Positions 1-30,935 of a stretch of 64,000 nt of DNA are shown here, piece after piece. Source of the DNA: Escherichia phage DT571/2. How positions within the stretch are numbered: position 1 is the first letter of the stretch; every line of letters starts with the position of its first letter. A program made the translations under genes and the position numbers. The notes under the pieces were generated by a model that had not been told where the DNA came from, ran no database searches, and saw only the letters and a list, made by a program, of their open reading frames with translations. Location of the stretch: sequence record NC_047749.1; one strand, given 5' to 3'.

Positions 1-73
1 GCTCACCGCCGGAGGCGAAAATACTTAGTCTGCTAACCGCCACCCCCCGTTACTATTACTCTGCTAACTATTT

Positions 74-102
74 CACCTTGCAACCATTTTAATTGCAAGG
101 TG
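74..102. other. stable hairpin (10-bp stem CACCTTGCAA / TTGCAAGGTG, 9-nt loop)
   Basis: perfect inverted repeat read directly; lies just past the dmp stop. Confidence 0.5.
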
Positions 103-123
103 AAACAAATTCAACTGTAATTA

Positions 124-858
124 TTACGCTACTTTTAATTTCTCAATATATTGTTGTGGGCTGCAACTATATTCTGCGCGCTCCTCCTCGGTCATACCTT
201 CCCAACATAATTGCAAGCGGTCGGCTAGGAACTGATAATCATTATCATCTTCAAGAGATTCATCAATAAAGGTTTCGCCGATCAATGTGACGCCTATTGA
301 TAGAATATCGTTAACGGCTTGCGCGTCCAGCGTTTTAAATCCATATGCCGCCGCCGCTGATAATACGCCTTTATGATCATCAATCATCGTGAAATCAGCG
401 TTCGGATATAGCTGTTTGAATAGCTCAAAATAATGGCTTTTATATATAGCGTCTTTACTGTGGTATATTTCGCTAACCTTATCAGCCGTAAAATATTTGT
501 GAAGTGTATCGCGGGAAAATACGCGGATATTGCTATTCCCACGCCCTCGCAGACCTTGTTTGCGCAAATAATAATAATCCGACTTACTCATCAGGCGAGC
601 GGTGCAAATAATGTTTAACGTGTTGGCGTCATTCATGCATTGGCGCATATAGGTAACGAGCGGCAAAAGCGTATCCTGCATTATTAACTCATGTTTGCAC
701 GCTTCATTTTTATACTTATTTAAATCTAAATCGCCTTCAATATCAAAGCAAGGCGCTACACGGTGGGCGGAGTTAATGATCGTGCCGTCCAGATCCCAAA
801 TCATTACGCGGGAAATATGCGGGTAATTGCGGGAAATATTCTTTTTATCTTGATTCAT
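124..858 (-). CDS. dmp: 5'-deoxyribonucleotidase, HAD superfamily (T5 Dmp-like)
   Basis: 244-aa ORF; HAD motif I DxDGT (MIWDLDGTII) near N-terminus; first gene at left end as in T5. Confidence 0.8.
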   Translation of the reverse strand: MNQDKKNISRNYPHISRVMIWDLDGTIINSAHRVAPCFDIEGDLDLNKYKNEACKHELIMQDTLLPLVTYMRQCMNDANTLNIICTARLMSKSDYYYLRKQGLRGRGNSNIRVFSRDTLHKYFTADKVSEIYHSKDAIYKSHYFELFKQLYPNADFTMIDDHKGVLSAAAAYGFKTLDAQAVNDILSIGVTLIGETFIDESLEDDNDYQFLADRLQLCWEGMTEEERAEYSCSPQQYIEKLKVA

Positions 859-932
859 TTTGTTACGTTCTCCATTAAAGGGATTAAGTTAATTTAATCC
901 AGCCCATACAGTGGGCTGGAGTATTTCAGTCA

Positions 933-1334
933 TTAAAATACCAGACCATAAGCCAAAGCATCAGCGATAACAGTAATATCCTCGCCAGATACACCGGAAC
1001 GAATACCGGCGCATGTAAATACCTTCGCGCTCATTAACTGATCATCAAGACAAGCGGGGCAAGGCGCGACAACTGCGAAAGCTAAACCAGCTTTTGCGGC
1101 GTCAATAATAGTCGTTTCTTGTTTCATCGTATCAATGTAAACGCCTTTCGCCTTGATGCGGCTAGATAGCTTGCCCGTGGTGTAGGCGAAAGTAGTGATC
1201 TGTAGCGCCTCATTAAATTCGATTAAGTCATCAACAACGTGCCCCGCCTCGACGTGATAGCGCTCACCGGTAGAATAAACTAGGACGATTGCAGACTGCG
1301 CGCGATCGAATGGGATACGGTTGTAAGTAGTCAT
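933..1334 (-). CDS. pre-early protein, A2-like by size and position
   Basis: 133-aa ORF between dmp and A1; no motif recognised. Confidence 0.55.
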   Translation of the reverse strand: MTTYNRIPFDRAQSAIVLVYSTGERYHVEAGHVVDDLIEFNEALQITTFAYTTGKLSSRIKAKGVYIDTMKQETTIIDAAKAGLAFAVVAPCPACLDDQLMSAKVFTCAGIRSGVSGEDITVIADALAYGLVF

Positions 1335-1403
1335 GCGTATAACTCCAATTAATTTAATAAACTTTTATGGCGGCGGTATATTTCGCCCGCCCGCCTGATT
1401 TAT

Positions 1404-3068
1404 TTACGCGAAAAATTTGCCGTTTTTAAAGTCGATTAACGTGCGCTGCCCGTTTGCATATGTAATTACATGCGTTTGCGTCCAGCTTGATGCGCCGACG
1501 TTGTAGCCCATATCGAGGCTGCCCGATACGCCAGCAGTATATACGCCGCCGTAAATGCTGGCGGTATGGGTGTGCCCCGTGTTTAATTTGCCCAACTTTT
1601 TAAATTGCTTCGGATTGCCGCGGCTCCCGTTGATGCCGTTGTGACCGTGTACGCCGCACTCAATGCCTGCAATCTTGAATGATTGATCAGTCGTTAGGAA
1701 TATGGCGTTAAACTCACAGCCTGCAACCTTGCGCAGCGCATAATCCAGCACGTTGAAAGTATCGTCATTTTCTGCAATAGCTCCATAGATCGCGGCGTTG
1801 AGGCGGTGATATAGCTCTGCGTTTGCTGGATCGTCTTTAATGTTAGCGTTGCGATCATCCAGCCAACGGGATAACGCCAGATCGTGGTTTGACTCAACAA
1901 TGATTGTTTGCGAGAAATCGCGCTCCATTGATTCCAATACACGCCCCGTGTCGATAAGATCATCTAAAACCTTATCACGTCCGGCGGCGTACTGTTTTGC
2001 TAGGAATACGCCAGATGCGCGATTGTGGTGGTTGCGTGATGTAAAGTCATGCACATCATGCACGAACTGATATTTAGGTTTAAGAATATCAAGCAAACTA
2101 TTTTCGCCCGCCCATGACGCTTCAGCACACGCCTTATCTAATTTTTCAGCGTGCACGTCGCCATACTGTAAACCTAAAACATGCCCCGATGTTTCATAAC
2201 ATCCGGCGGGAGTGGCGCAAATATTCAAATCATAAAAAACGCCGGTTTCATCCATCGTCTCAAGCTGGCGAACAAAAAATGCCCCGTCCTCGTCAAACTC
2301 GACAATCAGCGCGCCAAAGTTATGTAACGCTTCGGCCTTTTGCCCTGCTTTCTGCTGAATGTAGTTTTTTAGCGTTGCCGCTCCCGTTGAGTACATACGG
2401 CGCACTACTTCACCTTTGAGCGCTGGAACGCTTTCTGCGGTGATTTTAGCTGCTCCAATTGCCAAACCTTCAAGATCAAGCGCTGTTGCAGTCTCAGCGA
2501 ATCCAGAAAGCGGGTAGTCTGCCGTTGGCAAAACATTAATCTCAGCCATGAAAGCAAAGCGGCGACTATTTAAAAACACGTTTTTATTACAGATATATTT
2601 ATCAAAAGCGGAATCATATTTGATCCCGTCCGCACCTTCTCCATTCTGGAATCCTTTTTTGTTATAAATGAACTTGCTAACCAGCAAATCAGCGCCGATA
2701 AATTGGGCGTAATGTTCAAGTGAGGCTAAAAAGTTTTTATGCGGGAACGTGTTGTTCTGGATTGATGTTATAATGAAGCGTTTGCCCTGCTTTACTTCCC
2801 ACTGTTCAACCGTGCTAGAAATAATTCCCGCCGCCTCTGGGCGCTCGTCGTTTTTAACGGCTTTTGATGCTTTCGCCTCTTTTGGTTTCGCTGGTTTGTT
2901 TGCTTCCAGCCAATCACAAATTGCGGTCGAATGTTTTGCCGTATCGTACACCGCTTTTGATATATCGTCGCAGACTTCCAATCTAGTAGCGCGCAGACGT
3001 TTACCGTAAAAATTAAAATCAGCGGCCAGCTTCAGGATAACGGTTTGTTTTTCTGCGGAAATAACCAT
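1404..3068 (-). CDS. A1: pre-early protein A1-like, calcineurin-type metallophosphoesterase (probable nuclease)
   Basis: 554-aa ORF; phosphoesterase motifs GDVHAE, VESNHD, GVHGH, GHTHT; size and position match T5 A1. Confidence 0.8.
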   Translation of the reverse strand: MVISAEKQTVILKLAADFNFYGKRLRATRLEVCDDISKAVYDTAKHSTAICDWLEANKPAKPKEAKASKAVKNDERPEAAGIISSTVEQWEVKQGKRFIITSIQNNTFPHKNFLASLEHYAQFIGADLLVSKFIYNKKGFQNGEGADGIKYDSAFDKYICNKNVFLNSRRFAFMAEINVLPTADYPLSGFAETATALDLEGLAIGAAKITAESVPALKGEVVRRMYSTGAATLKNYIQQKAGQKAEALHNFGALIVEFDEDGAFFVRQLETMDETGVFYDLNICATPAGCYETSGHVLGLQYGDVHAEKLDKACAEASWAGENSLLDILKPKYQFVHDVHDFTSRNHHNRASGVFLAKQYAAGRDKVLDDLIDTGRVLESMERDFSQTIIVESNHDLALSRWLDDRNANIKDDPANAELYHRLNAAIYGAIAENDDTFNVLDYALRKVAGCEFNAIFLTTDQSFKIAGIECGVHGHNGINGSRGNPKQFKKLGKLNTGHTHTASIYGGVYTAGVSGSLDMGYNVGASSWTQTHVITYANGQRTLIDFKNGKFFA

Positions 3069-3165
3069 AATATTAAAACTCCATTAAAGGGATTAAGAAC
3101 GTTTGTTATTGGCAAATATTGCCAAATATAACGCTGCTTATTAACAGCGTTATAATTTGCAATAC

Positions 3166-3411
3166 TTAACTGATCGGCATCAGGCTAGAACTAACACCAC
3201 AAACAACGGCGGTAATAAAACAAAATAAGCCTAAACGCTTTGCTAACTTTGATTTGCGTTTAAAGTAATATGAATCCAGATCATTCTGGAAATAAGCGAA
3301 CAATAATGAGGCCGCTACAATAAATAAACCTAGAATTAACGATTCAGTGGGATAAAAGATCATTTTAATAATTCCAGTTAAAGGGAAATTATAGTGGGGA
3401 ATATTCCCCAC
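3166..3411 (-). CDS. small membrane protein
   Basis: 81-aa ORF with two hydrophobic segments. Confidence 0.5.
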   Translation of the reverse strand: MGNIPHYNFPLTGIIKMIFYPTESLILGLFIVAASLLFAYFQNDLDSYYFKRKSKLAKRLGLFCFITAVVCGVSSSLMPIS

Positions 3412-3420
3412 TAATTAAAT

Positions 3421-3837
3421 TTATTCACCTGCGGATTGTTTTACTTCATCTGCTACGCCTAGTAATTGCGCTACGGCGTCCAGCGTTTCTAATTTTGCGC
3501 TTTCCAGACTTGCCAGATCGTCGGCGTCTTTGATAATGCCGGAATCAATGGCATGTTTAGCAATAACGCGCACATAATGCGCCTTGCGGATTGAACTACC
3601 GCCGCCAACTTTGCGCGGTTTATCGCTTTTCTGATACGCTTTTGCGCTGGTCAATTTTGAGCGAACAGACACAGGGGAAGTAGCGCCCACTGTTTTGGCG
3701 ATCTCTTTCAGGCCGTCGCTGTTTGCGAACTCTAAACCGTTTTCATTGATTAATTGCTGATACATAGAAACGGCTTTTTGGGTATTTTCTTCATTCCATG
3801 CAAATTTTGCGGATTTTTCGGTTTTAACGTTAGTCAT
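3421..3837 (-). CDS. hypothetical pre-early protein
   Basis: 138-aa ORF, tightly packed in leftward operon. Confidence 0.55.
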   Translation of the reverse strand: MTNVKTEKSAKFAWNEENTQKAVSMYQQLINENGLEFANSDGLKEIAKTVGATSPVSVRSKLTSAKAYQKSDKPRKVGGGSSIRKAHYVRVIAKHAIDSGIIKDADDLASLESAKLETLDAVAQLLGVADEVKQSAGE

Positions 3838-3937
3838 GGTATAAACTCCAATTAATTTAATTTAAGGGATAAGATTAACATAATGTTAATCGTTATATTT
3901 CCCCAATAGTTCGGGGAAATATAAAGTTAACACTAAA

Positions 3938-4189
3938 CTATGCTACAGCTTCCAATTTTTCGTTACGTTGAACAACTTTTACAACGTCGCCAGATTTAAC
4001 GCGAACACTAAAAACGGTTTTTCCGTTGTTGCTACGTTCCGTTTCTGCATATACTGCATCAATTACATCGAACGGCATGAGCGCCGCGCCTTTGATGCGT
4101 TCGGCCTTTCCGGTTGCCTCGTCTGTTTTAGTAACGAAAGGGATGAAAACGGATTGACCAATTTTTGGCGCGGTGATAGCGTTTTTCAT
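3938..4189 (-). CDS. hypothetical protein
   Basis: 83-aa ORF. Confidence 0.5.
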   Translation of the reverse strand: MKNAITAPKIGQSVFIPFVTKTDEATGKAERIKGAALMPFDVIDAVYAETERSNNGKTVFSVRVKSGDVVKVVQRNEKLEAVA

Positions 4190-4423
4190 GGTATAAACTC
4201 CAGTTATTTGATGGATTGTTCCGCATTACCTGCTAAAAAATAATAACAGGTAATAAGAAAAAATCCGCTCACCGTTAAAATCAATTTAAGGAACTCCACA
4301 CAGGCCGCTATATCCCGTTAGGGGGCGGGGCACATTATGGCAAGTACCGGCCGTCAAATTTTACCAAGTTATCGCTCTTGTTGAATCGGGTACATTTTAA
4401 AGCCTATCGGCTAGGGCGTCAAA

Positions 4424-4594
4424 TTATTTTTCGTTTTCTTTTAAATTAGAATTCTCCCAACTGAATTGCATCTCGCAAAATATTTTCCCATCTTTATGAT
4501 GGTAAGCGATCTCGCTCCCGTGGTTAGCACAGAAAGCGATCACTGCCTCAGCTTGTTCTACCGTGATATTGTTGGCCGTTTCTTTGATTTTCAT
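4424..4594 (-). CDS. small hypothetical protein (56 aa, not in ORF track)
   Basis: manual translation MKIKETANNITVEQ...; AAGGAG Shine-Dalgarno 8 nt upstream of ATG. Confidence 0.45.
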   Translation of the reverse strand: MKIKETANNITVEQAEAVIAFCANHGSEIAYHHKDGKIFCEMQFSWENSNLKENEK

Positions 4595-5220
4595 ATCGTC
4601 GTCTCCTTATAAGGTTAATAAGTTTGCCGCCGATGGGCTTTAAAATGCACCTGATTTTTAAAGAGCGCGGCGGTAAACTTTCCGCCGTGTAGTTCGTCAT
4701 TGCCGCCCTACGAGATAAATAATAGGGAATACCCAAAAAAGGTGCAACCTTAATTTTGTAAAGAAATGTAAAGAAAGCAAATACCCGCACCGCGTCCGGC
4801 GATCGCCCAAGTTTAAAGGAAACAGGCGCGCGGATACCATAAAACCGAGCTGATTGGCAAGTAATTTTTTCATTTTTATTTGCCTTGCCCTACTTGACAA
4901 AACTTAAAAAGCTCGTGGTGACGATAAACGGGCTATCCCTTTATGATGGGATACCTGAAAAATTTACCGCGTTGTAGGACGTTTTAGGCCGCTTATCTTC
5001 GATTTAACAAATATTTAACAAAAGCAAAATTGAAAAATAGTTTGAGAAGGTATTGACTTTTTAAAATCAAGACTAAACGAGTTATTTTAAAAAATTAATT
5101 AATTGACTTTTATTTGTTGTTGTGTAGTAGAAAGATAGCAGACTAATAATTGCTAGAATGATAATCATGCTGGTGATTGTAACAGACTGAACTATTAGCA
5201 GACTACTGATCCCGGAAAAT

Positions 5221-5260
5221 CTCATTAGCCAACTAACTATCTCATTAGCCAACTAACTAT
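5221..5260. repeat. 20-bp direct repeat x2 (CTCATTAGCCAACTAACTAT)
   Basis: two identical adjacent copies. Confidence 0.9.
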
Positions 5261-5270
5261 TTCATAAGTT

Positions 5271-5450
5271 ATAATAACTATAAAAATAATCACCGTTAAA
5301 ATAATCACTATAAAAATAATCACCATTAAAATAATAACTATAGAAATAATCACCATTATAATAATCACCATTAAAATAATCACTATAAAAATAATCACCA
5401 TTAAAATAATCACTATAAAAATAATCACCATTATTATAATCACTATAAGA
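5271..5450. repeat. 15-bp tandem repeat, about 12 copies (ATAATCACYRTTAAA)
   Basis: read directly; the 68-aa ORF 5237..5443 is its translation artefact. Confidence 0.9.
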
Positions 5451-5486
5451 AACTATCGGCTTAAGTGAGAACCACTATCATTTAAG

Positions 5487-5568
5487 TTATCCACAACGTT
5501 ATCCACAGCACAAAATGATTTGACACGATAGGCGGCGATATAAAGATTTATCCACAGACTTATCCACA
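5487..5568. promoter_or_regulatory. DnaA-box cluster, 4 perfect TTATCCACA in direct orientation
   Basis: boxes at 5487, 5499, 5548, 5560; two imperfect boxes follow to about 5600. Confidence 0.7.
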
Positions 5569-5872
5569 GGTTATCCTACTGTATATTTATCCAGGGTAAA
5601 AAGATAGTGTTTACAACTGCAATCAATTTTGAGCGGCCTAAAACGCTTTCTAACGAGCTGATCGCTGTAGGGTAATATTAAAGTAAAGCCTTTACCCGTC
5701 GGCCTAGAGGCTTCGCCGTGTTTTGCTCTTTACTGCACCGCTGCGCGGTTAGCATAAAACTAGGTGTTAGGCAAGAAAAATAAAAAGTAAAGTAAACGTT
5801 GCCCCTAGAAAGAAAATAATTTTACCGGTAACATCGAAAGCGGGTAATAATTAACCTAATGTAAAGTTTTGT

Positions 5873-5901
5873 AAGGCCCGCCATAATCAGCGGCCTTTTT
5901 T
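5873..5901 (+). terminator. putative rho-independent terminator
   Basis: stem AAGGCC/GGCCTT with 13-nt loop followed by TTTTTT. Confidence 0.45.
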
Positions 5902-5965
5902 GTTATACTGCCCTTACACCGTTTAAGGACGGTTAAAAATTTCCCGAAAAATTTGGAGGCTTAAA

Positions 5966-6145
5966 ATGGTTATTTTTCGATCTATTCTGGCGGGTATCTT
6001 GGGCGCTATTTTAACTCTATTTGCTACCGCTTACGGTATTCAAGATTCTTATTGCGGTTTAGTAAATACTAAACCTATGGTTATTATTGGCGCGGGTATC
6101 GCTGTTTTTTCTTATTTGCTGGGCTGCATGAATAAAGGAGAATAA
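5966..6145 (+). CDS. small membrane protein (59 aa, not in ORF track)
   Basis: GGAGG SD then ATG; hydrophobic translation MVIFRSILAGILGAILTLFATAYG... Confidence 0.45.
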   Translation: MVIFRSILAGILGAILTLFATAYGIQDSYCGLVNTKPMVIIGAGIAVFSYLLGCMNKGE

Positions 6146-6147
6146 AA

Positions 6148-6360
6148 ATGATCCGCAACGTTTCTCTTGCTCGTTCCAAAGGTTTTAAGCTGGTGGATGT
6201 AAACACGTTCGAGCGTCCTGGTTGTAAAATCGAATATATAGCGCGGAATAAAAACGCTTTCCGCGTTACAGAAAAGAGATTCGATAAACGCGGCAACGTG
6301 ATAGCTGAAACGGTTAAATATTTTGCCACCTTTTACGCGGCCTTTCGTGGGGTATTATGA
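6148..6360 (+). CDS. hypothetical protein
   Basis: 70-aa ORF with AGGAG SD. Confidence 0.5.
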   Translation: MIRNVSLARSKGFKLVDVNTFERPGCKIEYIARNKNAFRVTEKRFDKRGNVIAETVKYFATFYAAFRGVL

Positions 6361-6482
6361 AGAGCGTTGTTATTGTTATCCTTGCAATGGTTGGCGGTTT
6401 TACCACCACCTTGTTTAGAAATGATCCTCTTTTGCTAGGGATCTTTATGCTTTTATCTGGTTATCTGATCGGGAGGTTATAA
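6357..6482 (+). CDS. small membrane peptide (41 aa)
   Basis: ATGA start/stop overlap with upstream ORF; hydrophobic. Confidence 0.35.
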   Translation: MKSVVIVILAMVGGFTTTLFRNDPLLLGIFMLLSGYLIGRL

Positions 6483-6483
6483 A

Positions 6484-6828
6484 ATGGTGATTTATGAAGG
6501 TGATCGCCTTGTTGCTGATTGCCGTCCGGCATTGTTAGCAAACTACTTAAACCAGCTTTCGCCAGTATATAAAGGCGTTATAAATATTTATGAAGGCGGG
6601 GCGCATTATAAGATTAATGCGGTCGTTGCCCGTGAACTAGCGTTTCAATTTTTAACCTTTTCATCTTGCAATATTCAGGTCATGGGTGAGGCGTTAATTG
6701 CAGAAAATGAAGATGATTTTATTAATATCTTTCGCAAGATATGCACCGAGCGCCTGATAATGAAAGGGGCATATATTCAATCCACTGCGGATAGTATTGA
6801 AACGGCTTTTCGAAAGGTGGCACAATGA
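6484..6828 (+). CDS. hypothetical protein
   Basis: 114-aa ORF with GGGAGG SD. Confidence 0.5.
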   Translation: MVIYEGDRLVADCRPALLANYLNQLSPVYKGVINIYEGGAHYKINAVVARELAFQFLTFSSCNIQVMGEALIAENEDDFINIFRKICTERLIMKGAYIQSTADSIETAFRKVAQ

Positions 6829-6966
6829 AGCTATATATTTTCGCGGGTAATGTTGAGGCTGCAAATGATTCCGCTGGTGGCGATAGCGTTCGCCATTATT
6901 GGCAAAATTATATTTACTAGGCGTAATGATCACGGGGCACAACTATCAGGGAGTGCCCCTGATTCT

Positions 6967-6991
6967 CAAATGAGAATCATTCTCATTTGAC
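6967..6991. repeat. 25-bp perfect palindrome TCAAATGAGAAT-C-ATTCTCATTTGA
   Basis: read directly; shares the AATGAGAATCATT core with the downstream 22-bp repeats. Confidence 0.85.
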
Positions 6992-7209
6992 CGCGCCCGC
7001 GATGGTTAGCACACTAATGATTAGGGTGTTACGTGTCGCCTTGTGTGATCGTTAGCGGGCTAACTAATTTTCAAGCCTCCTCCAGATTTGCCCTTGTTTT
7101 AGTATCCCCATCAAAATAAAACGCGTTAGAAAGCGATTCAGGGCGTTTTAGGCCTATATTAGAATTATTCACTGCGTAGGAATACTGTATATTTATACAG
7201 TAGAATAAC

Positions 7210-7292
7210 CTGGGGATAAGTCGGTGGATAACGCTTCAAAATGGCTAGAATTTTGTCAAGGCAAATCGTGCTGTTGATAAGTCTGTGGATAA
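7210..7292. promoter_or_regulatory. DnaA-box cluster in opposite orientation to 5487..5568
   Basis: GTGGATAAC at 7224 and TGTGGATAA at 7284, plus imperfect TGGGGATAA at 7210. Confidence 0.6.
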
Positions 7293-7299
7293 CTTAAAT

Positions 7300-7590
7300 A
7301 ACAGTGTTTCTCACTTCCGTTTTTAAATGCGAATCATTATCATTTGCATTCCACTTCTTAAATGAGAATCATTTCACTTCTTGAATAGTTCTCATTCCCT
7401 TTCTTAAATGAGAATCATTTCACTTCTTGAATAGTTCTCATTTCACTTCTTGAATAGTTCTCATTCCACTTCTTAAATGAGAATCATTCCACTTCTTAAA
7501 TGAGAATCATTCCACCTCTTAAATGAGAATGATTATCATTCGCATTCCACTTCTTAAATGCGAATGATAATCATTCTCATTCGCATTCCG
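7300..7590. repeat. about 10 tandem copies of a 22-bp unit (CACTTCTTAAATGAGAATCATT / CACTTCTTGAATAGTTCTCATT) with flanking short inverted repeats
   Basis: read directly. Confidence 0.85.
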
Positions 7591-7617
7591 GCGAGCAGGG
7601 CAATTGCCCTGCGCTTA

Positions 7618-8350
7618 TGTGCAAATCCGACAATTGCTCCAAGGGTTACGCGAGGGCATGTATGTGCAAATCCGACCCATTTTTTGGTAGTGTGCAAATC
7701 CGACCCCAAAAATTTATAAATTCGTGAGAGTGACAAATCTGTCTCCCAAAAACTCCAGCAATCACGAACTGCGTTCGAATCCTGTGGGGTATGTGCAAAT
7801 CCGACACGGTTTTTCTAGGATTAAGATGTGCGAATCCGATGAAATTTTTGTGACTTCGATGAGAGGGTGTGTGATTGTATAGGTTTGAGGAGAAGATGAG
7901 AGAGCGAGAAAAATTTTGGGGCTAGAAGTGTATGGGCGCAGGATTGGTGCGGAGCACCTGATTTGCGGGGGTTTTGGGGGATAGTGGAGATAATTTGGGG
8001 AAATTTGAGATAGGTGCAGAAAAAGTAAAATTTTATTAGCTAAAGGGGGCAATATAGCTTGACAATTGAAAATTCTTGTGGCTCTAAAAACTCAGGCAAT
8101 CATGGGCCTTCGGCCCGAAATAATGCTGCTATTTTCAGGAGATTATATGTTCCTAAAAACTTAGGCGTTTGTGCAAATCCGACCATAAATTTCTAGAAAC
8201 ACAATGTGCAAATCCGACAGTAATTCCTGGAAATGTGTTTTCAAAAAATGTCTCCTAGAAATAACCGCCCTCCCTATAACCGCCCTCCCTATAACCGGCC
8301 TAGGTATGTAACGTTGGAGGGAAACTGCCCTAGAATATGTGCAAATCCGA
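7618..8350 (+). repeat. dispersed co-oriented 14-mer TGTGCAAATCCGAC, 8 copies
   Basis: copies at 7618, 7663, 7691, 7792, 7827 (variant), 8170, 8205, 8338; several preceded by CTAGAA. Confidence 0.85.
8261..8297. repeat. 15-bp tandem repeat x2.5 (ATAACCGCCCTCCCT)
   Basis: read directly. Confidence 0.85.
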
Positions 8351-8725
8351 TTAATATTTTTGTGTGATCCCTAGAATTTGTGCTTATCAATTTCCTAGAA
8401 ACTTAGGAGTCTGCTAGAAAGTGTTGAGCCATCCTAGCAGATGAGCGGCAACCGGTGTATCATCTTGAACACAGATATTGCCTTTAAATTTTTATCAGTT
8501 ATTTAAAAGTAAATAGTCCCCCATTTCATGTGAGATTCCTCGTGGGGCGCGTGAGTATTACGGAAGACTTAGTAATTAGATCTATACTCGTGCTGTCGCA
8601 ACGTATAGACGTAATACTAAGTGTAATAATCATCGCCCCTAGAGTTCAAAACAAGAGTTGTTTTTAATCTATGAGATTATTATAACATGTTTGGGTATGA
8701 GAATGCAAGAACTTTTTGTTAACGT

Positions 8726-9082
8726 TTATACTTCCTCCTCGAGATTGGTATTAGGATCGTAAATTTTCTTGGCTCCTGTATTTAATAGGAATCGCTCTGC
8801 AAGTAGTGGGTGAATATCAAAGAACTCTGTGCATCCTTCGAATCCCTTTAAATTACAGCGGTATTTCTTAAAGTAGATATGAGCAGCGGCTTCTAGATCT
8901 CTAGGATTATGGGTTTCATAAATCCCATACACGTATAAATCGTCAAAACCACGATAAACTATATTATCTAAGTTTAGTGTTTGAATCCTATTATGTGGAT
9001 TCACACTGATACCGATCTTTGTTCTTTTAGGGATCTTCGTCAGATCCCTATTTGCAAGAATATATGCTTTATATAGTGACAT
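8726..9082 (-). CDS. T5orf172 / GIY-YIG-like domain protein
   Basis: 118 aa; KIGIS.NPHNRI motif and C-terminal EFF resemble the T5orf172 domain. Confidence 0.6.
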   Translation of the reverse strand: MSLYKAYILANRDLTKIPKRTKIGISVNPHNRIQTLNLDNIVYRGFDDLYVYGIYETHNPRDLEAAAHIYFKKYRCNLKGFEGCTEFFDIHPLLAERFLLNTGAKKIYDPNTNLEEEV

Positions 9083-9809
9083 TCTTTCTAGCCTTTAGAT
9101 AGATTCCTTTAGATGCTAGATAGATATATGTAGCAAGGAATGAAGATGTAGATCCTGTTTCTTCAAGAGTAATAGATCCTTTTGCATAACGCTTAGTTCT
9201 AGGAGCCTGGTTAAGCACAAGTGCAGTGAGACTACCTAATCCTAGCGCATCCATTAAACGTTTGAAGGAGTCCTTTTCATCGTGGATAGCATATAGAATG
9301 TAATCTTCCGCTGTAGTTAGTTCTATATCGCGATGATGTGCCACTGCAATCCGTGCTACTACAGCTCCAATCGTTCTATAAATATCTTCAAACGTAATGC
9401 TAGTTTCAAAAGCTAATGCTGGAAGATGATCGAACTTACATTTCTTAGGCGGAATAAGAAGTTGTTCAGGATAAGCTTCTAGTGCCTGACGAACGTTTGC
9501 TTCTGGGTATGTTGGCAAAGGTTCATCTATAATAACATGTAAGAAATTAGCTCTGTGTCCTTTAGCAGTTGGATCTAAAGACTTCAATACTTTGTTCATA
9601 TCTACGTATGAATACGCTAGATCTGCTTGTGGGGCATTAATATCAAACTTAATCTTCTTACCCTCCCATTTAGCAGGGAACATCTCACAAACAAACATTA
9701 CTGCATGTTTAACCTCTGGCTCCAGCTCTGATAGACATTTGTGATCTGCTGTTACTGCTAGAGCGAGAATATTCTTAAATTTATTAGCTTCTTCAATCAT
9801 ATATCCCAT
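9069..9809 (-). CDS. hypothetical protein
   Basis: 246-aa ORF. Confidence 0.55.
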   Translation of the reverse strand: MGYMIEEANKFKNILALAVTADHKCLSELEPEVKHAVMFVCEMFPAKWEGKKIKFDINAPQADLAYSYVDMNKVLKSLDPTAKGHRANFLHVIIDEPLPTYPEANVRQALEAYPEQLLIPPKKCKFDHLPALAFETSITFEDIYRTIGAVVARIAVAHHRDIELTTAEDYILYAIHDEKDSFKRLMDALGLGSLTALVLNQAPRTKRYAKGSITLEETGSTSSFLATYIYLASKGIYLKARKNVTI

Positions 9810-10138
9810 GCCTGCTGACTATTATCACTAACTTGTGTCTTTTTCTCTCTTCGTGGTTTAAAAGTTCCTGTAGTATTACTTTTACTAGGTTCTAATTTAT
9901 ACCACAGCATTCCTAGCTGGTTAACCATATGAGCAACATTTCTAGGGGTCAATGGCGGTAGGGATTCACAGTTTGATATCTCCCTTAATATATTAAATAG
10001 TTCTGCCTCTTTAGCTTTATTGTTTACTACCACCACGTACTCTAATGTTTCTACCTCAGAATCCTCATCCTTATAGTAGAGGCTAAGAGTAATTAAATTC
10101 TCCCCAGCAGGGGCTATTTTTGTTTTACCAAATATCAT
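9797..10138 (-). CDS. hypothetical protein
   Basis: 113-aa ORF. Confidence 0.5.
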   Translation of the reverse strand: MIFGKTKIAPAGENLITLSLYYKDEDSEVETLEYVVVVNNKAKEAELFNILREISNCESLPPLTPRNVAHMVNQLGMLWYKLEPSKSNTTGTFKPRREKKTQVSDNSQQAWDI

Positions 10139-10734
10139 TAACTACCTCTCTTATCTTCGTTAAGAGCAGCTCCTAGTGCTTCCATAATTGCATCTTCTAT
10201 ACTTCCATGCTTACTAGGATTGCTTAAGTGAATAGTATATGAGTTCCTAGAAACTCCAGAGTCCACAGGTGCTGCGCTTTTCCTATCAGACTCAAAAGCT
10301 TCTTGGGTATGTTTCAACTGTACAGAAGGCCCATAGTCTTCCCCAACTCGATAGGACTGATTAGACGACAGCGTACCACCGCAGGGAACATTGTGCAAAT
10401 CCGATGGATTATTTAATAGTGCAATACCACCTCTTGGCCACGAGTCACTAACATGAGTACTAGGACGGTTAACCTCAGTCTTCACGAGTTTATAACCAGC
10501 ATCTATTAATGCATTAATAAGGTTATCAGCTGGAATGCGAGCCTTGCCAAAAATCTCACGAGCGTTGTTGAGCCTACCTTCAAAACCTTTACATGCTCTA
10601 ATATTAGTGTGTGCAAAGGTTAGCTTCATAGATTTGAATTGTACAGTAGCAGTTAAATCTTTAAAGCTATAATCCCACGTATTCAGTTCATGATCTGGTA
10701 CTACTTGAATAGATTGCTGTGCATATAAAGTCAT
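10138..10734 (-). CDS. hypothetical protein
   Basis: 198-aa ORF; contains one copy of the 14-mer at 10393. Confidence 0.55.
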   Translation of the reverse strand: MTLYAQQSIQVVPDHELNTWDYSFKDLTATVQFKSMKLTFAHTNIRACKGFEGRLNNAREIFGKARIPADNLINALIDAGYKLVKTEVNRPSTHVSDSWPRGGIALLNNPSDLHNVPCGGTLSSNQSYRVGEDYGPSVQLKHTQEAFESDRKSAAPVDSGVSRNSYTIHLSNPSKHGSIEDAIMEALGAALNEDKRGS

Positions 10735-24893: not shown

Positions 24894-24968
24894 TGGTGCG
24901 GGATACGAGAGTCGAACTCGTGTCTACTGGTTGGAAGCCAGTTATTCTAGCCGCTGAACTAATCACGC
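24894..24968 (-). tRNA. tRNA-Gly (anticodon UCC)
   Basis: hand fold: encoded CCA, perfect T-arm ACGAG/TTCGACT/CTCGT, anticodon arm ACTGG-CTTCCAA-CCAGT. Confidence 0.7.
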
Positions 24969-24979
24969 ATTAATTTGGT

Positions 24980-25057
24980 TGGCAGGGGATATTGGATTTG
25001 AACCAATGATCTCGACTTCAAATGCCGTAGCTTTAGGCCAAGCTAAGCTAATCCCCA
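24980..25057 (-). tRNA. tRNA-Gln (anticodon UUG), U1-U72 mismatch
   Basis: hand fold: CCA, G73, T-arm ATTGG/TTCAAAT/CCAAT, anticodon loop ATTTGAA. Confidence 0.55.
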
Positions 25058-25063
25058 ATTGTT

Positions 25064-25139
25064 TGGCAGAAGGTAGTGGATTTGAACCACTGATCAGGGT
25101 TTCAGAGACCCCAGCCTTAACCGACTTGGCTCAGGTTCT
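25064..25139 (-). tRNA. tRNA-Gln (anticodon CUG), imperfect acceptor stem
   Basis: hand fold: CCA, G73, D-arm resembling E. coli tRNA-Gln, anticodon loop CTCTGAA; 5' boundary uncertain. Confidence 0.5.
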
Positions 25140-25303
25140 TCAAGGCGCTTACCTTCATGATCTACTCGAATGAGTCCACATCCTTCGCAAACCACAACTG
25201 CACCATAACCTTCTTTGACCTCAGCTTCTGTAATCAGACCAGAAAGATCACCAGTATCTCTGCCCCACATATCAATGGAGCATTGTTTGCAGAAATCAGC
25301 CAT
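25094..25303 (-). CDS. small zinc-ribbon-like protein; 3' end overlaps tRNA-Gln
   Basis: 69 aa; CxxC...CxxC (CKQC, CEGC). Confidence 0.4.
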   Translation of the reverse strand: MADFCKQCSIDMWGRDTGDLSGLITEAEVKEGYGAVVVCEGCGLIRVDHEGKRLEEPEPSRLRLGSLKP

Positions 25304-25305
25304 AA

Positions 25306-25533
25306 TTAATCCTTATTACAAGTGGTAGAGAGGATGGTACGATCGGAGATCCAACCGCCAGTGTAAGCACCATTGACTTTATATTCAGTCAAAGTACCGT
25401 GACCACGAATAGCGAAAACTGTTAGGGTTTTCGTGCCCCCATAACCATCTTTAACAGTTACGGTACAATCTAATGATGTGCCGATAGTGCAGCCAGCTAA
25501 AGTCAGAGCAGCAATCAATACTAAGTATTTCAT
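25306..25533 (-). CDS. lipoprotein
   Basis: 75 aa; signal peptide with lipobox LAGC. Confidence 0.55.
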   Translation of the reverse strand: MKYLVLIAALTLAGCTIGTSLDCTVTVKDGYGGTKTLTVFAIRGHGTLTEYKVNGAYTGGWISDRTILSTTCNKD

Positions 25534-25556
25534 GTTGTTATCCTTGTTAAGTTAAT

Positions 25557-25631
25557 TGGTGCATCCTCAGGGAATCGAACCCCAATCGTAAAGTTCGTGG
25601 CTTTACATTCTTTCCATTGAAATAAGGACGC
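25557..25631 (-). tRNA. tRNA-Arg (anticodon ACG)
   Basis: hand fold: CCA, perfect anticodon stem TAAAG/CTTTA, loop CCACGAA (C at position 33). Confidence 0.65.
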
Positions 25632-25637
25632 AATATT

Positions 25638-25714
25638 TGGGGTGGCTAGTGGAATTCGAATCCACATAGGCCTGATTCACAATCAGGATCATTAACCAAT
25701 TATGATATAGCCAC
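25638..25714 (-). tRNA. tRNA-His (anticodon GUG)
   Basis: hand fold: perfect acceptor GTGGCTA/TAGCCAC, T-arm GTGGA/TTCGAAT/TCCAC, anticodon loop TTGTGAA, CCA encoded. Confidence 0.8.
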
Positions 25715-25938
25715 AATTGAAAACTCGCAGGGTTAGCGAAACCATCCTCAATTAGCATGTTCTAGAATACTAATCAAGTTATCTCCTATTGCACGCAGCT
25801 CAAGACGAGTACGAATTTTCAATTGTGGCGGCTCTCAGAAACTCTTCTATTCTAGCCTCAGAAGCTTACCCCCGAACGCATGTCGGGAAAGTCTTTCCAA
25901 GAGCATCAAATAGCACCGTTACACTTTGAGCCATTATT

Positions 25939-26033
25939 TGGAGGTAGGTAAGGGGATCGAACCCTTACACCGTATCACTACGATCAACCGATTTCAAGTC
26001 GGAGTCCAGCGCCAGCCGTTGGATTGACCTACC
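25939..26033 (-). tRNA. tRNA-Ser (anticodon UGA), class II
   Basis: hand fold: perfect acceptor and T-arm, anticodon loop CTTGAAA, long variable arm. Confidence 0.7.
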
Positions 26034-26045
26034 ATATAAATTGTT

Positions 26046-26136
26046 TGGCGGAAGAGGAGAGATTTGAACTCTCAAGCCGTTTTACCAGTCAGCCACTTTC
26101 CAAGCGGTTTTCGTCGCCAATTCGATTTGCTCTTCC
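26046..26136 (-). tRNA. tRNA-Ser (anticodon GGA), class II
   Basis: hand fold: perfect acceptor GGAAGAG/CTCTTCC, T-arm GAGAG/TTCAAAT/CTCTC, loop TTGGAAA. Confidence 0.65.
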
Positions 26137-26172
26137 AATAATAAGATGATGCCTCTATCACGCCAGGCAGTT

Positions 26173-26245
26173 ACGCCTCGCTGGGATTCGAACCCATTAA
26201 AACAGCTCAACCGAGATAGTAGGTTTAATTTACTCTGACCATCAA
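26173..26245 (-). tRNA. tRNA-like element (T-arm only, no acceptor pairing found)
   Basis: canonical T-arm TGGG/TTCGAAT/CCCA at 26181..26197 but no complementary 5' acceptor located. Confidence 0.3.
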
Positions 26246-26248
26246 ATT

Positions 26249-26325
26249 TGGTGCGTGACAAGGGATTCGAACCCTCAAAACCCGACTTCTAGGGACGGTA
26301 TGTATGCCAATTCCATCAATCACGC
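26249..26325 (-). tRNA. tRNA, anticodon not confidently assigned (loop CCTAGAA would give UAG)
   Basis: hand fold: CCA, good acceptor and T-arm, anticodon stem with one U-U mismatch, D-arm unclear. Confidence 0.55.
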
Positions 26326-26330
26326 GTATT

Positions 26331-26405
26331 TGGTGGAGAAAGAGGGAGTTGAACCCTCGTCTTCTGCGTGCAAAGCAGATGTTCTACCATTAAACTATAT
26401 CCCCA
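26331..26405 (-). tRNA. tRNA-Ala (anticodon UGC)
   Basis: hand fold: CCA, T-arm GAGGG/TTCAACT/CCCTC, perfect anticodon arm TCTGC-TTTGCAC-GCAGA. Confidence 0.65.
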
Positions 26406-26642
26406 AATTCTTTAGTTTACTAAGGCTATTAGCTCGGCGTAACTACAGCACCTTCACTTCGAGCGGAAGGAACCGCGTCATCTCGCAAACCCGATACACT
26501 ATTCAGTTGCCGCTGAATCTAGTGGACTAATCTAGAACCTCCCCCAAATTGTAGGGATCGTGCTTTTTGGCAGCCAGTCCTAGGTCGAGCTAATACCTTA
26601 GTGAACTATGATGAGGATTTCTCCCCATCAATTTATATAAAT

Positions 26643-26671
26643 ATTATAACAAGAAATTAAGCATCAAGCAA
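26643..26671 (-). promoter_or_regulatory. T5-early-type promoter driving the tRNA cluster
   Basis: RC of TTGCTT-17-TATAAT; no ORF downstream, leads into tRNAs. Confidence 0.55.
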
Positions 26672-26772
26672 ATGAGTTTTTCCTTGAAATTGGTAGCGGG
26701 TTCCAGTACTGCCCTGGACTTACTTAGCTTATGAGACTAAGAAGAACTCTATGCCTTCCACCCGCAATTGTT

Positions 26773-26836
26773 TGGTCAGTGCGGCAGGACTCGAACCTGC
26801 GACCTGAAGCATCCAAGGCTCCCACGCTACGCACTG
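26773..26836 (-). tRNA. atypical 64-nt tRNA-like element (no room for a D-arm)
   Basis: CCA, perfect 7-bp acceptor CAGTGCG/CGCACTG and perfect T-arm GCAGG/TTCGAGT/CCTGC, only 29 nt between them. Confidence 0.4.
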
Positions 26837-26844
26837 AAAGTTTA

Positions 26845-27192
26845 TTAGTTTAACCGTAAAGTATTATCTACTTCACCATTAATTGTTCGGCATTCCTCTG
26901 GGATTGTCGGAGTGGCCTTGTATTCCCACCACTCAGCACCGTCATATTCCCCACGTTCTAGCCAAGTTCCATCGGCAAACCATACATTACCATAAAGTAA
27001 TTGTCCACCGTATCCAGAATCATATTCAAAGTCTAGGTTATTAAGAAAATCCTCAATATCTTCTTCTGTATAACCTAAAGGTAATACCCAGACTTTTTTA
27101 TCCCCATAATACCCGAATTCTATTTTAATACACTTAACTTTAGAATTGGTATTTTTTAAGGCGAGTAATAGCTCTTCTTTAGCATTACGCAT
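26845..27192 (-). CDS. hypothetical protein
   Basis: 115-aa ORF. Confidence 0.55.
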   Translation of the reverse strand: MRNAKEELLLALKNTNSKVKCIKIEFGYYGDKKVWVLPLGYTEEDIEDFLNNLDFEYDSGYGGQLLYGNVWFADGTWLERGEYDGAEWWEYKATPTIPEECRTINGEVDNTLRLN

Positions 27193-27217
27193 AGTATATT
27201 CTCATACTGAGTTAATT

Positions 27218-27291
27218 TGGCGCGACCGATGGGATTTGAACCCACATTCCCCGTGACAGGGGAGTACCATTACCAAGCCAGCCCCTGTCGC
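27218..27291 (-). tRNA. tRNA-Asp (anticodon GUC)
   Basis: hand fold: CCA, T-arm, anticodon loop CTGTCAC. Confidence 0.7.
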
Positions 27292-27300
27292 ATAATTCAT

Positions 27301-27486
27301 TTACTCATATTTGAGTTTTTCAATAGCTGCATTAAGTTCTTTTAGAGCTTCACGACGTTCTACCTGACCTTGAAGTTCTTCAAGAAGTTCCGCTTTCAGA
27401 GTCTCAATAATTTTACCACGAACCTTGATATTATTAATCAGATTATCACGATCAGCTTCTAGTCGAGCAATTGCATGAGTTGTCAT
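27301..27486 (-). CDS. small coiled-coil protein
   Basis: 61-aa ORF. Confidence 0.45.
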   Translation of the reverse strand: MTTHAIARLEADRDNLINNIKVRGKIIETLKAELLEELQGQVERREALKELNAAIEKLKYE

Positions 27487-27513
27487 ATCTATTTCCTCAG
27501 TTATTAATGAAAA

Positions 27514-27586
27514 TGGTATCTGTGGCTGAATTCGATGTCAGCAATGATAGCTGGTTGGCTACCGGTTTACTTAACTCTACACAGAA
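27514..27586 (-). tRNA. tRNA-like element with non-canonical loops (possible pseudo-tRNA)
   Basis: CCA plus 6/7 acceptor pairing, but T-loop and anticodon loop are 8 nt. Confidence 0.3.
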
Positions 27587-27588
27587 TT

Positions 27589-27666
27589 TGGCGGGCCGTG
27601 TAGGATTCGAACCACCAACCCCGAAGGGCACGGATTTACAGACCGCTGCAATAGCCATTCTGCCAA
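27589..27666 (-). tRNA. tRNA-like element with Tyr-like anticodon loop CTGTAAA (degenerate)
   Basis: CCA, weak T-stem, variable-arm hairpin CCC-TTCG-GGG, no acceptor pairing found. Confidence 0.35.
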
Positions 27667-27750
27667 CGATGTATATTTAAAAGTATTCAAATACTTGTTT
27701 AAACACTTTTAAATATGTTTCCAACTTAGATAACTATTATATCTAGGTTT

Positions 27751-27792
27751 AAGGCACTGAGCAAGTCAGATTTTGAAGAATTTGCTCAGTGC
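27751..27792. other. stable hairpin (11-bp stem GCACTGAGCAA / TTGCTCAGTGC)
   Basis: read directly; lies in leader between promoter at 27868 and tRNAs. Confidence 0.6.
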
Positions 27793-27867
27793 TATATTAG
27801 TTAGTCGAACTTAGGAGTAACAATTAAAGAGAATGGGAGTTCGAAAACTTCATCAATTTATATAACT

Positions 27868-27897
27868 ATTATATCAGAAATTTAAAGCAAAAGGCAA
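27868..27897 (-). promoter_or_regulatory. T5-early-type promoter (tRNA leader)
   Basis: RC of TTGCCT-18-TATAAT with conserved leader. Confidence 0.45.
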
Positions 27898-27927
27898 GTA
27901 CTTTTTTAAAAATTCTGTTTGGAGGAG

Positions 27928-28134
27928 CTAAACTCCAGATTCTTCAGCCAAGTCTAGACTAATAAGAGTTATAGCCATAATTGCCGCACCGTGTTCTTTT
28001 TCTCCGGTGTTTTTAGCAGAGTCTATAATACCCTTAATCTGTTCGTAATAACTTTTTACTTCTTGTTCAATGCCGGCCTCGGCTATCATGCCTTTAGTCA
28101 TGAGTCGTTGCATGGTAATTTCACGGTTAGCCAT
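27928..28134 (-). CDS. hypothetical protein
   Basis: 68-aa ORF. Confidence 0.45.
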   Translation of the reverse strand: MANREITMQRLMTKGMIAEAGIEQEVKSYYEQIKGIIDSAKNTGEKEHGAAIMAITLISLDLAEESGV

Positions 28135-28309
28135 GATGTTTCTCCAGTTTCATCTTTAATAGTTTACAAATGAAGTCAATATCTTCATCCGTGCCTAGAT
28201 CTCTATCTTCAAGAGTTGCCTTGAAGTTTTTAGTCAACTCCATAAGGATGACTTCCCTAGAACGACGTGTTGGCGGAGGTGGATGTCTATACATCTTATT
28301 TCCTTAATT

Positions 28310-28384
28310 TGGTGGGTCGGAGGAGAATCTAACTCCTACTCGTTAGCTTATGAGGCCACCGCTTTAACTTTAAGCTACCGACCC
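28310..28384 (-). tRNA. tRNA-Met (anticodon CAU)
   Basis: hand fold: perfect acceptor GGGTCGG/CCGACCC, perfect T-arm, D-stem GCTT/AAGC, loop CTCATAA. Confidence 0.75.
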
Positions 28385-28390
28385 TATGTT

Positions 28391-28479
28391 TGGCGGAAGA
28401 AGCGGGAATCGAACCCACAAGGCTATATTTCAAACCGACAGATTAGCAATCTGCTGCAATACCGTTATGCTATTCTTCC
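28391..28479 (-). tRNA. tRNA-Ser (anticodon GCU), class II
   Basis: hand fold: perfect acceptor GGAAGAA/TTCTTCC, anticodon arm GCAGA-TTGCTAA-TCTGT, long variable arm. Confidence 0.7.
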
Positions 28480-28500
28480 GAATTTATAAGATATATTATA

Positions 28501-29037
28501 TTAGAAATTTAGCTTCATAGCAAGAAAATTTTTCAAGTTTTCGGTAGACATCTCATCCACATCTACAGGAGAAACAAACCCATCTAATTGTCTAGCAAAT
28601 TTTTCACCGGCAGGATCATTATCCCCAACAGCTACCAATTTAAAAGGTAGTAATTTCAATTGCTTTAACAACGCTTTTCCGGGGGAAGAACCCAACATTG
28701 CTAGGGCAGGATAACCAGCATTATGTAATGCTACAGCCTTAAATACAGATTCAGCAATCAATACTACTTTTTCATCCCCATTGAGAGTTTCTAGCCCCCA
28801 TACACACTGTGTGGTAGAATAAGTAAAATATCTAGCTTCAGAGGGGCACTTACCATGACCTTTTGGAGCAGAAGGATTATAAATCTGATAGCCTCTCAGC
28901 ATCCCAGAGAAGTCGTACAATGGGACTGTTAGCCATCCCTCCGGGCTTAACCAGCAATGATATTTATCTGTATCAAACCCTCTGGATAAGAGATGTTCTG
29001 TTAGTTCATCAACAGTCATATTAGATTCCTCTCTCAA
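28501..29037 (-). CDS. small Toprim-like domain protein
   Basis: 178 aa; LIAESVFKA and VAVGDNDPAGEKFA resemble Toprim E and DxD motifs. Confidence 0.5.
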   Translation of the reverse strand: MREESNMTVDELTEHLLSRGFDTDKYHCWLSPEGWLTVPLYDFSGMLRGYQIYNPSAPKGHGKCPSEARYFTYSTTQCVWGLETLNGDEKVVLIAESVFKAVALHNAGYPALAMLGSSPGKALLKQLKLLPFKLVAVGDNDPAGEKFARQLDGFVSPVDVDEMSTENLKNFLAMKLNF

Positions 29038-29048
29038 ATTATAAATAT

Positions 29049-29077
29049 ATTATACAGAGAATTTAGCATTCAAGCAA
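29049..29077 (-). promoter_or_regulatory. T5-early-type promoter
   Basis: RC of TTGCTT-17-TATAAT. Confidence 0.55.
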
Positions 29078-29163
29078 TTGAATTTTTAAACTTTTTAGTG
29101 GAAAATCTCAAGACATTTAATGGCAGCACGTTGTTGCTGTAATAAGAGTATATGGTTCTAAAG

Positions 29164-29206
29164 AACCAAACAATAAAGCCCTGCGCTCTCCAGGGAACGC
29201 AGGGCT
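29164..29206 (-). terminator. rho-independent terminator
   Basis: 9-bp GC-rich stem AGCCCTGCG/CGCAGGGCT followed on the minus strand by a U-rich tract. Confidence 0.65.
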
Positions 29207-29230
29207 TACTTCAGAGATTACATGCGGGTG

Positions 29231-30178: not shown

Positions 30179-30212
30179 GTATTTCCTTTGTTTTAGTTAC
30201 AGTTAATAAAAT

Positions 30213-30287
30213 TGGCCGAGGTGACAGGATTCGAACCTGCATAAAGGAATTTAGAAGACTCCTGCCTCTCCCTTAGACTACACCCCG
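30213..30287 (-). tRNA. tRNA-Arg (anticodon UCU)
   Basis: hand fold: CCA, acceptor with one G-U, T-arm, anticodon arm GGAGT-CTTCTAA-ATTCC. Confidence 0.65.
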
Positions 30288-30788
30288 TTTAAGTATTTTT
30301 AAGAACTCTCGTAAAAACTCTTAAAAATACAGACGATACCGGGAGAGTCATAAGTCTCACTCATTAAGTATTTCAAGACAAAATACAGTAACGTCTATTA
30401 TTTTCCAGTTTAAGTCAAGGTGACTTAGTGGTTATGCCCTGCGGTATACTGAGGACTCGGTTAGGCTAGGGTCATGACTCCCCGCTTTTTGCTGCTACTC
30501 AACAGGAATTATCGCGAATTACCTGTGCTATTGTGCACCATTAGTGGCATCTCTCATGCCAGCATTTCCCACTTTGTGGATAGTTTGAAAAACTACTCCG
30601 ATATGGAGGGAGAACTTCACTATCCTAGAATACCTTCTAAAGTTCTTCTTTAGCCTGGACATAGTTAAATCGTAATAAAACTATTCAGCAGACTGGTTGG
30701 TTAGCCTGGAACCAACTACCGCGTGGTTTAGGCAGTGCGCAACTAACCTCGGAAGCTTTTACGTTAAAAGCACCAGTTATCCAGTTCT

Positions 30789-30860: not shown

Positions 30861-30935
30861 AGTGTTACTACATAAGTGATTTCCACACCCCACTATCAAT
30901 AAATTAGGGAAGAATTACTCTCTAATTTATGAATA

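Follow-up and report, generated by a model that had tools for sequence, protein, structure and literature searches.

In phages T5 and BF23, the genome is known to enter the host by a two-step transfer that relies on A1 and A2 of the pre-early gene set, where the first-step-transfer (FST) DNA goes in ahead of the rest. T5 requires both A1 and A2, is made more virulent by dmp, and can dispense with genes 002, 005, and 007 (bioRxiv 10.64898/2026.04.02.716235), and the Dmp protein is described in the T5 literature as converting deoxynucleoside monophosphates (dNMPs) to nucleosides. According to the same preprint, A1, a predicted metallo-phosphatase, is required for host DNA degradation in vivo and, when expressed ectopically, is enough to cause it. 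Here, we compare these systems with the left part of the Escherichia phage DT571/2 (NC_047749.1), a published sibling of the DT57C phage (PMC4728585), using a window of 64,000 nt on one strand. An earlier note, made from the sequence alone, had read positions 124–3068 of this window as a T5-like pre-early module marking the left genome end. We consider it very probable that a Tequintavirus pre-early operon, the leftward one, occupies this region, lying within the left copy of an ~8.1-kb terminal direct repeat and working as it does in T5. The orthology, gene order, position in the terminal repeat, motifs, and folds described below come from the present analysis; the genetics of A1, A2, and dmp are taken from the T5 literature. 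Given that the orthologues are 80–94% identical to those of T5, the genes would have the same roles here, and the phage would be expected to behave like T5.

The placement at the left end is carried by several comparisons. In a megablast search of 50,697 phage records, window positions 1–6000 were 100% identical over 6000 bases to positions 1–6000 of the DT57C phage (KM979354/NC_027356), and were matched by a total of 505 records, nearly all of them Escherichia, Salmonella, and Klebsiella phages of the T5-like kind. The window's opening base corresponds to base 1 in DT57C and BF23 and to base 2 in T5. The left terminal direct repeat, equivalent to the FST DNA, occupies positions 1–8085, an extent inferred from DT57C, as the very end of that record (99981–108065) is a second copy of window 1–8085 with 99.975% identity. 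For comparison, a length of 8081 bp was given for the terminal repeat (LTR) of DT57C by Davison 2020 (bioRxiv 10.1101/866236). Past position 8085, we noted homologues of T5.019–T5.080 (the early region), with 11 tRNA genes at 24.9–30.9 kb and polymerase (pol), helicase, and nrd genes at 40–64 kb. This succession of early, tRNA, and replication genes is the left arm of the T5 map, and the block thus has a physical terminus on its left and the early region next to it, as in a T5-type FST module. At the right end of DT57C, by comparison, the terminase, rbp, and llp genes precede the terminal repeat. Because, going by DT57C, the block sits within a terminal direct repeat, the pre-early genes alone cannot separate the left from the right end, and it is the early, tRNA, and replication genes after the repeat that identify the window as the left copy. 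The earlier note was therefore right about the position, given the identity to DT57C, the first base shared with the BF23 and T5 records, and the left-arm genes downstream; it fell short in letting the module serve as the marker, as only the downstream context decides between the two ends. The duplication at the right genome end, which the note had proposed looking for, is present in DT57C, the nearest relative.

The leftward block comprises 007-A2-005-A1-002-dmp, all on the minus strand and transcribed toward the genome end, as in the T5 reference (NC_005859) except for T5.003. Orthologues of dmp, A1, and A2, the three genes that define a T5-type FST module, are all present. The three open reading frames (ORFs) at 124–858, 933–1334, and 1404–3068 agree with the ORF list to the base, all on the minus strand. 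In blastp comparisons with the T5 reference proteins, the first of these, dmp (244 a.a), shares 94.3% identity with T5.001 over 244 a.a, while the third, encoding the essential pre-early protein A1 (554 a.a), shares 93.7% identity with T5.004 over 556 a.a. The middle ORF (933–1334, 133 a.a) is 80% identical to T5.002 (E 2e-83), and we have assigned it as the T5.002 homologue, of unknown function. The similarity to T5 pre-early proteins on which the note had staked its reading was thus found for all three. The real A2 gene, encoding a DNA-binding protein needed with A1 for second-step transfer, lies at 3421–3837 on the minus strand, with 94.2% identity to T5.006 (E 9e-95) and a match to phrog_1725 (DNA binding protein); searches of Pfam (E ≤ 10), NCBIfam, and, with the single sequence, the PDB gave no meaningful match for it. 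A2 is likewise annotated upstream of A1 in the DT57C, BF23, and T5 records. The arrangement that the note had described as that of the T5 FST region accordingly holds for the order of dmp and A1, and the gene between them is 002 rather than A2.

Conservation within the T5.002 family, which belongs to phrog_4576 (unknown function), is very high, with column identity averaging 86%. Members of the family share an invariant P-C92-P-A-C95 ... C108 arrangement, and these three cysteines could form a metal site in the gene 002 product. The family profile matched only PARP-1 zinc fingers in the PDB, at an insignificant E of 0.3, and the single sequence gave no meaningful Pfam (E ≤ 10), NCBIfam, or PDB match.

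The A1 protein starts with a helical region resembling a helix-turn-helix (HTH), continues with a beta-rich domain in the middle, and ends in a calcineurin-like metallophosphoesterase (MPE) domain (residues ~295–554). It has 713 relatives at E ≤ 0.001 in a large protein set, and we aligned its motifs across 33 homologues with identities down to 41%. The residues G303-D304-x-H306, H337-D338-x-x-D341, S393-N394-H395-D396, H474, and G498-H499-x-H501 were invariant in all 33, reading D304-V-H306, H337-D338-V-H-D341, and G498-H499-T-H501 in the window. All five MPE motifs (DxH, GDxxD(R), GNH[DE], H, and GHxH) are therefore represented, with departures in motif II, where H replaces G and the R is lacking, and in motif III, which reads S-N-H-D; an additional N346-H347-H348 cluster is invariant in the family. 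This agrees with the note, which had credited A1 with all phosphoesterase motifs. As in the canonical fold, a predicted beta-strand precedes each motif, and the predicted model (pLDDT, the predicted local distance difference test, of 87) shows the four-layer alpha/beta-beta/alpha sandwich. The best structural match to this model, with 220 residues aligned, was DP1, the small subunit of PolD and a 3′-5′ proofreading exonuclease (score 13.2), followed by MJ0936 (13.0), YfcE (12.5), LpxH (12.1), the Pol-alpha B subunit (11.7), SbcD (11.4), and Mre11 (11.2). In distant members of the family, the first 45 residues match Pfam HTH models at or close to threshold, and this stretch aligns to residues ~5–57 of the window's A1. 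The predicted model and the motifs support placing A1 among the MPEs, by its fold and active site only.

These features fit what has been published on the genetics of A1 in degrading host DNA, and to this extent the note's suggestion of such a role stands. From its motifs and predicted fold, we infer that A1 likely has direct nuclease activity and cuts DNA itself. More tentatively, and as a proposal we judge a little short of probable, A1 may be a processive host-chromosome DNase in which an HTH-like N-terminus targeting DNA or RNA polymerase and a family-specific middle domain are joined to a two-metal phosphoesterase. Such an enzyme would be a stand-alone exonuclease of the Mre11/DP1 type, operating without a Rad50/SbcC partner, with the gene 002 product and its CxxC...C motif perhaps serving as a metal-binding accessory. 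The first part of this proposal, with A1 itself as the DNase, has already been raised as a hypothesis in the T5 preprint (bioRxiv 10.64898/2026.04.02.716235).

The dmp gene encodes a deoxynucleoside-5′-monophosphatase, annotated as dmp at the same place in the DT57C record, which orthology, motifs, and predicted fold point to as a HAD-type phosphatase. HAD motifs I (DxDx[TV]), II ([ST]), III (K/R), and IV ([DE]D) occur in canonical order, and the corresponding residues (D22-L-D24-G-T26, T86, K140, and D160-D161) were invariant in 29 homologues. The top 50 Foldseek matches of the predicted model (pLDDT 82.7) in the PDB were exclusively HAD phosphatases (probability 0.97–1.00), including AphA, the T4 Pnkp phosphatase, XMP phosphatase, and lipin/Pah. 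The protein also matches phrog_415 (E 1e-55), a family labeled as polynucleotide kinase, and its homologues carry a precomputed PF26880 assignment. Our search of a literature library found no published HAD classification of the T5 Dmp. Motifs and fold comparison together support the HAD signature and Rossmann-like core of the predicted protein, and the note's identification of dmp as a HAD nucleotidase is upheld by these and by the identity to T5.001. Profile matches of A1 and Dmp to 3-dehydroquinate dehydratase and levoglucosan kinase in the PDB were spurious or sub-threshold and were set aside. We also observed a perfect inverted repeat with a 10-bp stem (CACCTTGCAA ... TTGCAAGGTG) at 72–105, ~20 nt 3′ of the dmp stop codon and ~70 nt from the genome terminus. 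The T5 and BF23 phages carry a near-identical hairpin; as it lacks a T-run, it is not a classic intrinsic terminator.

If the region works as in T5, the left 8 kb would enter the cell first, with entry pausing at a stop region rich in repeats and DnaA boxes. Host RNA polymerase would then transcribe 007-A2-005-A1-002-dmp leftward, and A1, through its DP1/Mre11/SbcD-like two-metal phosphoesterase domain behind the HTH-like N-terminus, would bring about the rapid destruction of the host chromosome. Together with the DNA-binding A2, A1 would let the remaining genome enter, and the putative HAD phosphatase Dmp would turn the released dNMPs into nucleosides.

Several observations weigh against this reading or parts of it. 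The duplication of positions 1–8085 at the right end is seen in DT57C; the window spans only the left 64 kb of its own genome, and no second copy was found in window 8086–64000. No homologue of T5.003 (279 nt in T5), hdi (008), hegG (010), 011, 012, or 017 was found in the first 9 kb of the window, and with these pre-early genes missing the details of host takeover may differ from T5. For A1, no Pfam or NCBIfam match at E ≤ 10 and no single-sequence PDB match was found, the 33-sequence profile retrieved no MPE from the PDB, and the Foldseek search of the model against the PDB was non-significant (best E 0.085), with MPEs as the top three matches. In the T5 preprint, no in vitro nuclease assay of the purified protein is reported, and activation of a host nuclease by A1 is kept as an option (bioRxiv 10.64898/2026.04.02.716235). 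For Dmp, there was likewise no match in Pfam (E ≤ 10), to an NCBIfam HAD model, or, with the single sequence, in the PDB. Its 29-sequence profile gave only sub-threshold motif-I matches in the PDB, all to HAD structures (E 0.3–0.6), and its fold matches were modest (E about 1e-3 and template modeling (TM) scores of 0.35–0.45).

Of the other ways to read the region, two concern its layout. In the arrangement implied by the note, ORF 933–1334, described there as A2-sized, would be A2 itself, giving a dmp-A2-A1 module. Size alone is compatible with this, as the ORF encodes 133 a.a against 135 a.a for T5 A2 (135–138 a.a for A2 in general), but the assignment is refuted by the orthology to T5.002 and by the presence of the A2 orthologue at 3421–3837, outside 124–3068. 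In addition, blastp found no match between the ORF and T5 A2 (T5.006) at E ≤ 10, and hhalign of the 21-member family profile against the window's A2 returned a probability of 0.65%, leaving this reading with practically no chance of being correct. The block could also represent the right terminal repeat or an internal copy, given that the same sequence lies at both ends of DT57C, where the genes alone are uninformative as to which end is seen, and that the block has internal coordinates in several T5-like database entries, which are permuted (e.g., 99242–105022 in ESCO40). We regard this as highly improbable, as the window opens where the DT57C and BF23 records begin (base 2 of T5) and 56 kb of early, tRNA, and replication genes in left-arm order come after the repeat, whereas a right-end copy would have rbp, llp, and terminase before it and nothing after.

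The remaining two concern the mode of action of A1. Rather than being a DNase itself, A1 could use its phosphoesterase domain as a phosphatase or regulator, to activate a host nuclease or to act on RNA polymerase or the membrane machinery, or could be a catalytically idle scaffold comparable to the alpha, delta, and epsilon polymerase B subunits. The B subunits of these polymerases and Vps29 have degenerate active sites, unlike the A1 family, in which all seven metal-ligand and catalytic residues are invariant. The best structural match of A1 is an active 3′-5′ exonuclease, DP1, with Mre11 and SbcD close, and its N-terminus corresponds to an HTH in distant homologues. Furthermore, the presence of A1 alone is enough to make E. 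coli lose its chromosome (bioRxiv 10.64898/2026.04.02.716235). On balance, we hold an indirect role to be unlikely, and favor A1 as the nuclease. Davison proposed instead that A1 is a site-specific, restriction-like endonuclease, with the phage spared as its FST DNA lacks the sites, which would account for self-sparing (bioRxiv 10.1101/866236). Neither the sequence nor the fold of A1 resembles PD-(D/E)xK, HNH, or other restriction-enzyme folds, its domain being, from the predicted fold, a calcineurin-like phosphoesterase. Calcineurin-like phosphoesterases that act on DNA, namely Mre11, SbcD, and DP1, are not known to be sequence-specific. We hold a restriction-like A1 to be very unlikely.

Upstream of A1, the leftward block continues with the T5.005 homologue (3166–3363, minus strand), a small membrane protein with 90.8% identity by blastp and a match to phrog_4820 (membrane protein), which is also annotated in DT57C. 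Beyond A2 lies the T5.007 homologue (3938–4189, minus strand; 89% identity), the first gene of the conserved block, which contains a DUF7177 domain (Pfam E 5e-40). Between 007 and a remnant of 009, in the place of T5 hdi, we observed a 56-a.a ORF (MKIKETANNITVEQ...; 4424–4594, minus strand) with no PHROG match and no annotation in DT57C. The rightward pre-early genes, homologues of T5.013, T5.014, and T5.015, occupy 5966–6828 on the plus strand (98%, 93%, and 89% by tblastn), with PHROG matches and annotation in DT57C in agreement. We did note that an "endonuclease nicking abasic sites generated by host Ung" is placed by the RefSeq T5 record and PHROG on the T5.014 homologue (6148–6360, plus strand) and by T5 papers on gene 015 (homologue at 6484–6828, plus strand), which is a discrepancy of numbering or annotation.

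The leftward and rightward pre-early sets are separated by a non-coding repeat region (5271–5568), where a 15-bp tandem repeat of 11.5 copies (5271–5443, Tandem Repeats Finder) is followed by four perfect DnaA boxes. The boxes (TTATCCACA) start at 5487, 5499, 5548, and 5560, paired so that the starts in each pair differ by 12 bp, with both pairs inside 82 bp, and one further box lies at 7284 on the minus strand. The pattern TTWTNCACA has 10 matches in the whole 64 kb, and the five perfect boxes in the pre-early region compare with the 8 described by Davison; these boxes fit that author's DnaA-box model of the injection stop region (bioRxiv 10.1101/866236). A coding sequence annotated in DT57C as "repeat completion protein" (5237–5431, minus strand) lies almost entirely within the 5271–5443 repeat, and its translation is a monotonous MIIIMVIIFIVIIL... 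string with no PHROG match. This ORF looks to be an artefact that the repeat creates, not a gene. The terminal repeat has, toward the interior of the genome, an untranslated region rich in repeats and including a DnaA box (7284–7582), as in a T5-type FST module, which tandem repeats and alignment to T5 identify as the counterpart of the T5 injection-stop-signal (iss) region. Its 23/69-bp tandem repeats at 7347–7582 align with the T5 iss region, and window 7091–8469 as a whole aligns to T5 9317–10608, overlapping the annotated iss at 9140–10149. A consensus scan of positions 1–9000 gave 23 promoters (23.9 in shuffled sequence) and 13 terminators (9.4 in shuffled sequence), no excess in either case, and we draw nothing from it. 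Further along the window, ARAGORN placed the 11 tRNA genes on the minus strand at 24894–30861, one of them with an odd anticodon, ACT, called as "Ser". In the same region of DT57C, more tRNAs are annotated, along with four stable RNAs of unknown function (RNAI, RNAIII, RNA2H, and RNA3).

The pre-early block itself is ordinary, already described for T5 and DT57C, and the role of A1 is already given in the 2026 preprint. It is the classic T5 host-takeover block, and its main value here is one of orientation, as it identifies the window with the left arm of a Tequintavirus resembling DT57C, so that the T5 and DT57C maps can be used to read every other finding in the window. The analysis adds a little: A2 is correctly placed, the catalytic motifs of A1 and Dmp are shown to be invariant across their families, the N-terminus of A1 is matched to an HTH, and the T5 pre-early genes missing from the window are listed. 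If true, a stand-alone A1 exonuclease would be of modest novelty only, its first part having already been hypothesised in the T5 preprint.

Compared with HAD phosphatases such as the 3′-phosphatase domain of T4 Pnkp and the class B acid phosphatase AphA, Dmp shares the DxDxT, T, K, and DD order and the Rossmann-like core, and differs in an extra C-terminal helical region (~190–244) of low model confidence and in lacking a Pfam or NCBIfam HAD match. A1 has no detectable sequence-level similarity to DP1 or Mre11/SbcD. Its motif II reads H-D-x-x-D rather than G-D-x-x-D-R, and only the A1 family has its N-terminal HTH-like region and 200-residue middle domain. In contrast with Mre11/SbcD, A1 is accompanied by no partner of the Rad50/SbcC type, and its nuclease activity is only predicted.

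Against the T5 FST region (NC_005859 1–10219), the window shows the same order and strand of dmp-002-A1-005-A2-007 with 80–94% protein identity. The block likewise lies at the genome terminus and, going by DT57C, within a direct repeat shared by both ends. The repeat and DnaA-box regions and the rightward 013–015 homologues are also present. The window's repeat is shorter (8.1 kb versus 10.2 kb), and of the 17 pre-early ORFs of T5, it keeps 001, 002, 004–007, and 013–015, with 009 and 016 kept as fragments only. The DT57C phage is far closer. The coordinates of dmp, 002, A1, 005, A2, and 007 are identical in the two phages, and positions 1–8085 show two mismatches against either copy of the DT57C repeat. 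Identity is 99.8% up to ~10.8 kb and 98–99% beyond that, with indels, such that window 10834/10924 corresponds to DT57C 10834/11446. Across 40–64 kb, identity to DT57C is 97.9% over 94% of the query, compared with 96.9% over 97% of the query for the Gostya9 phage. Judged from these alignments, the phage of the window is a sister isolate of DT57C, not DT57C itself.

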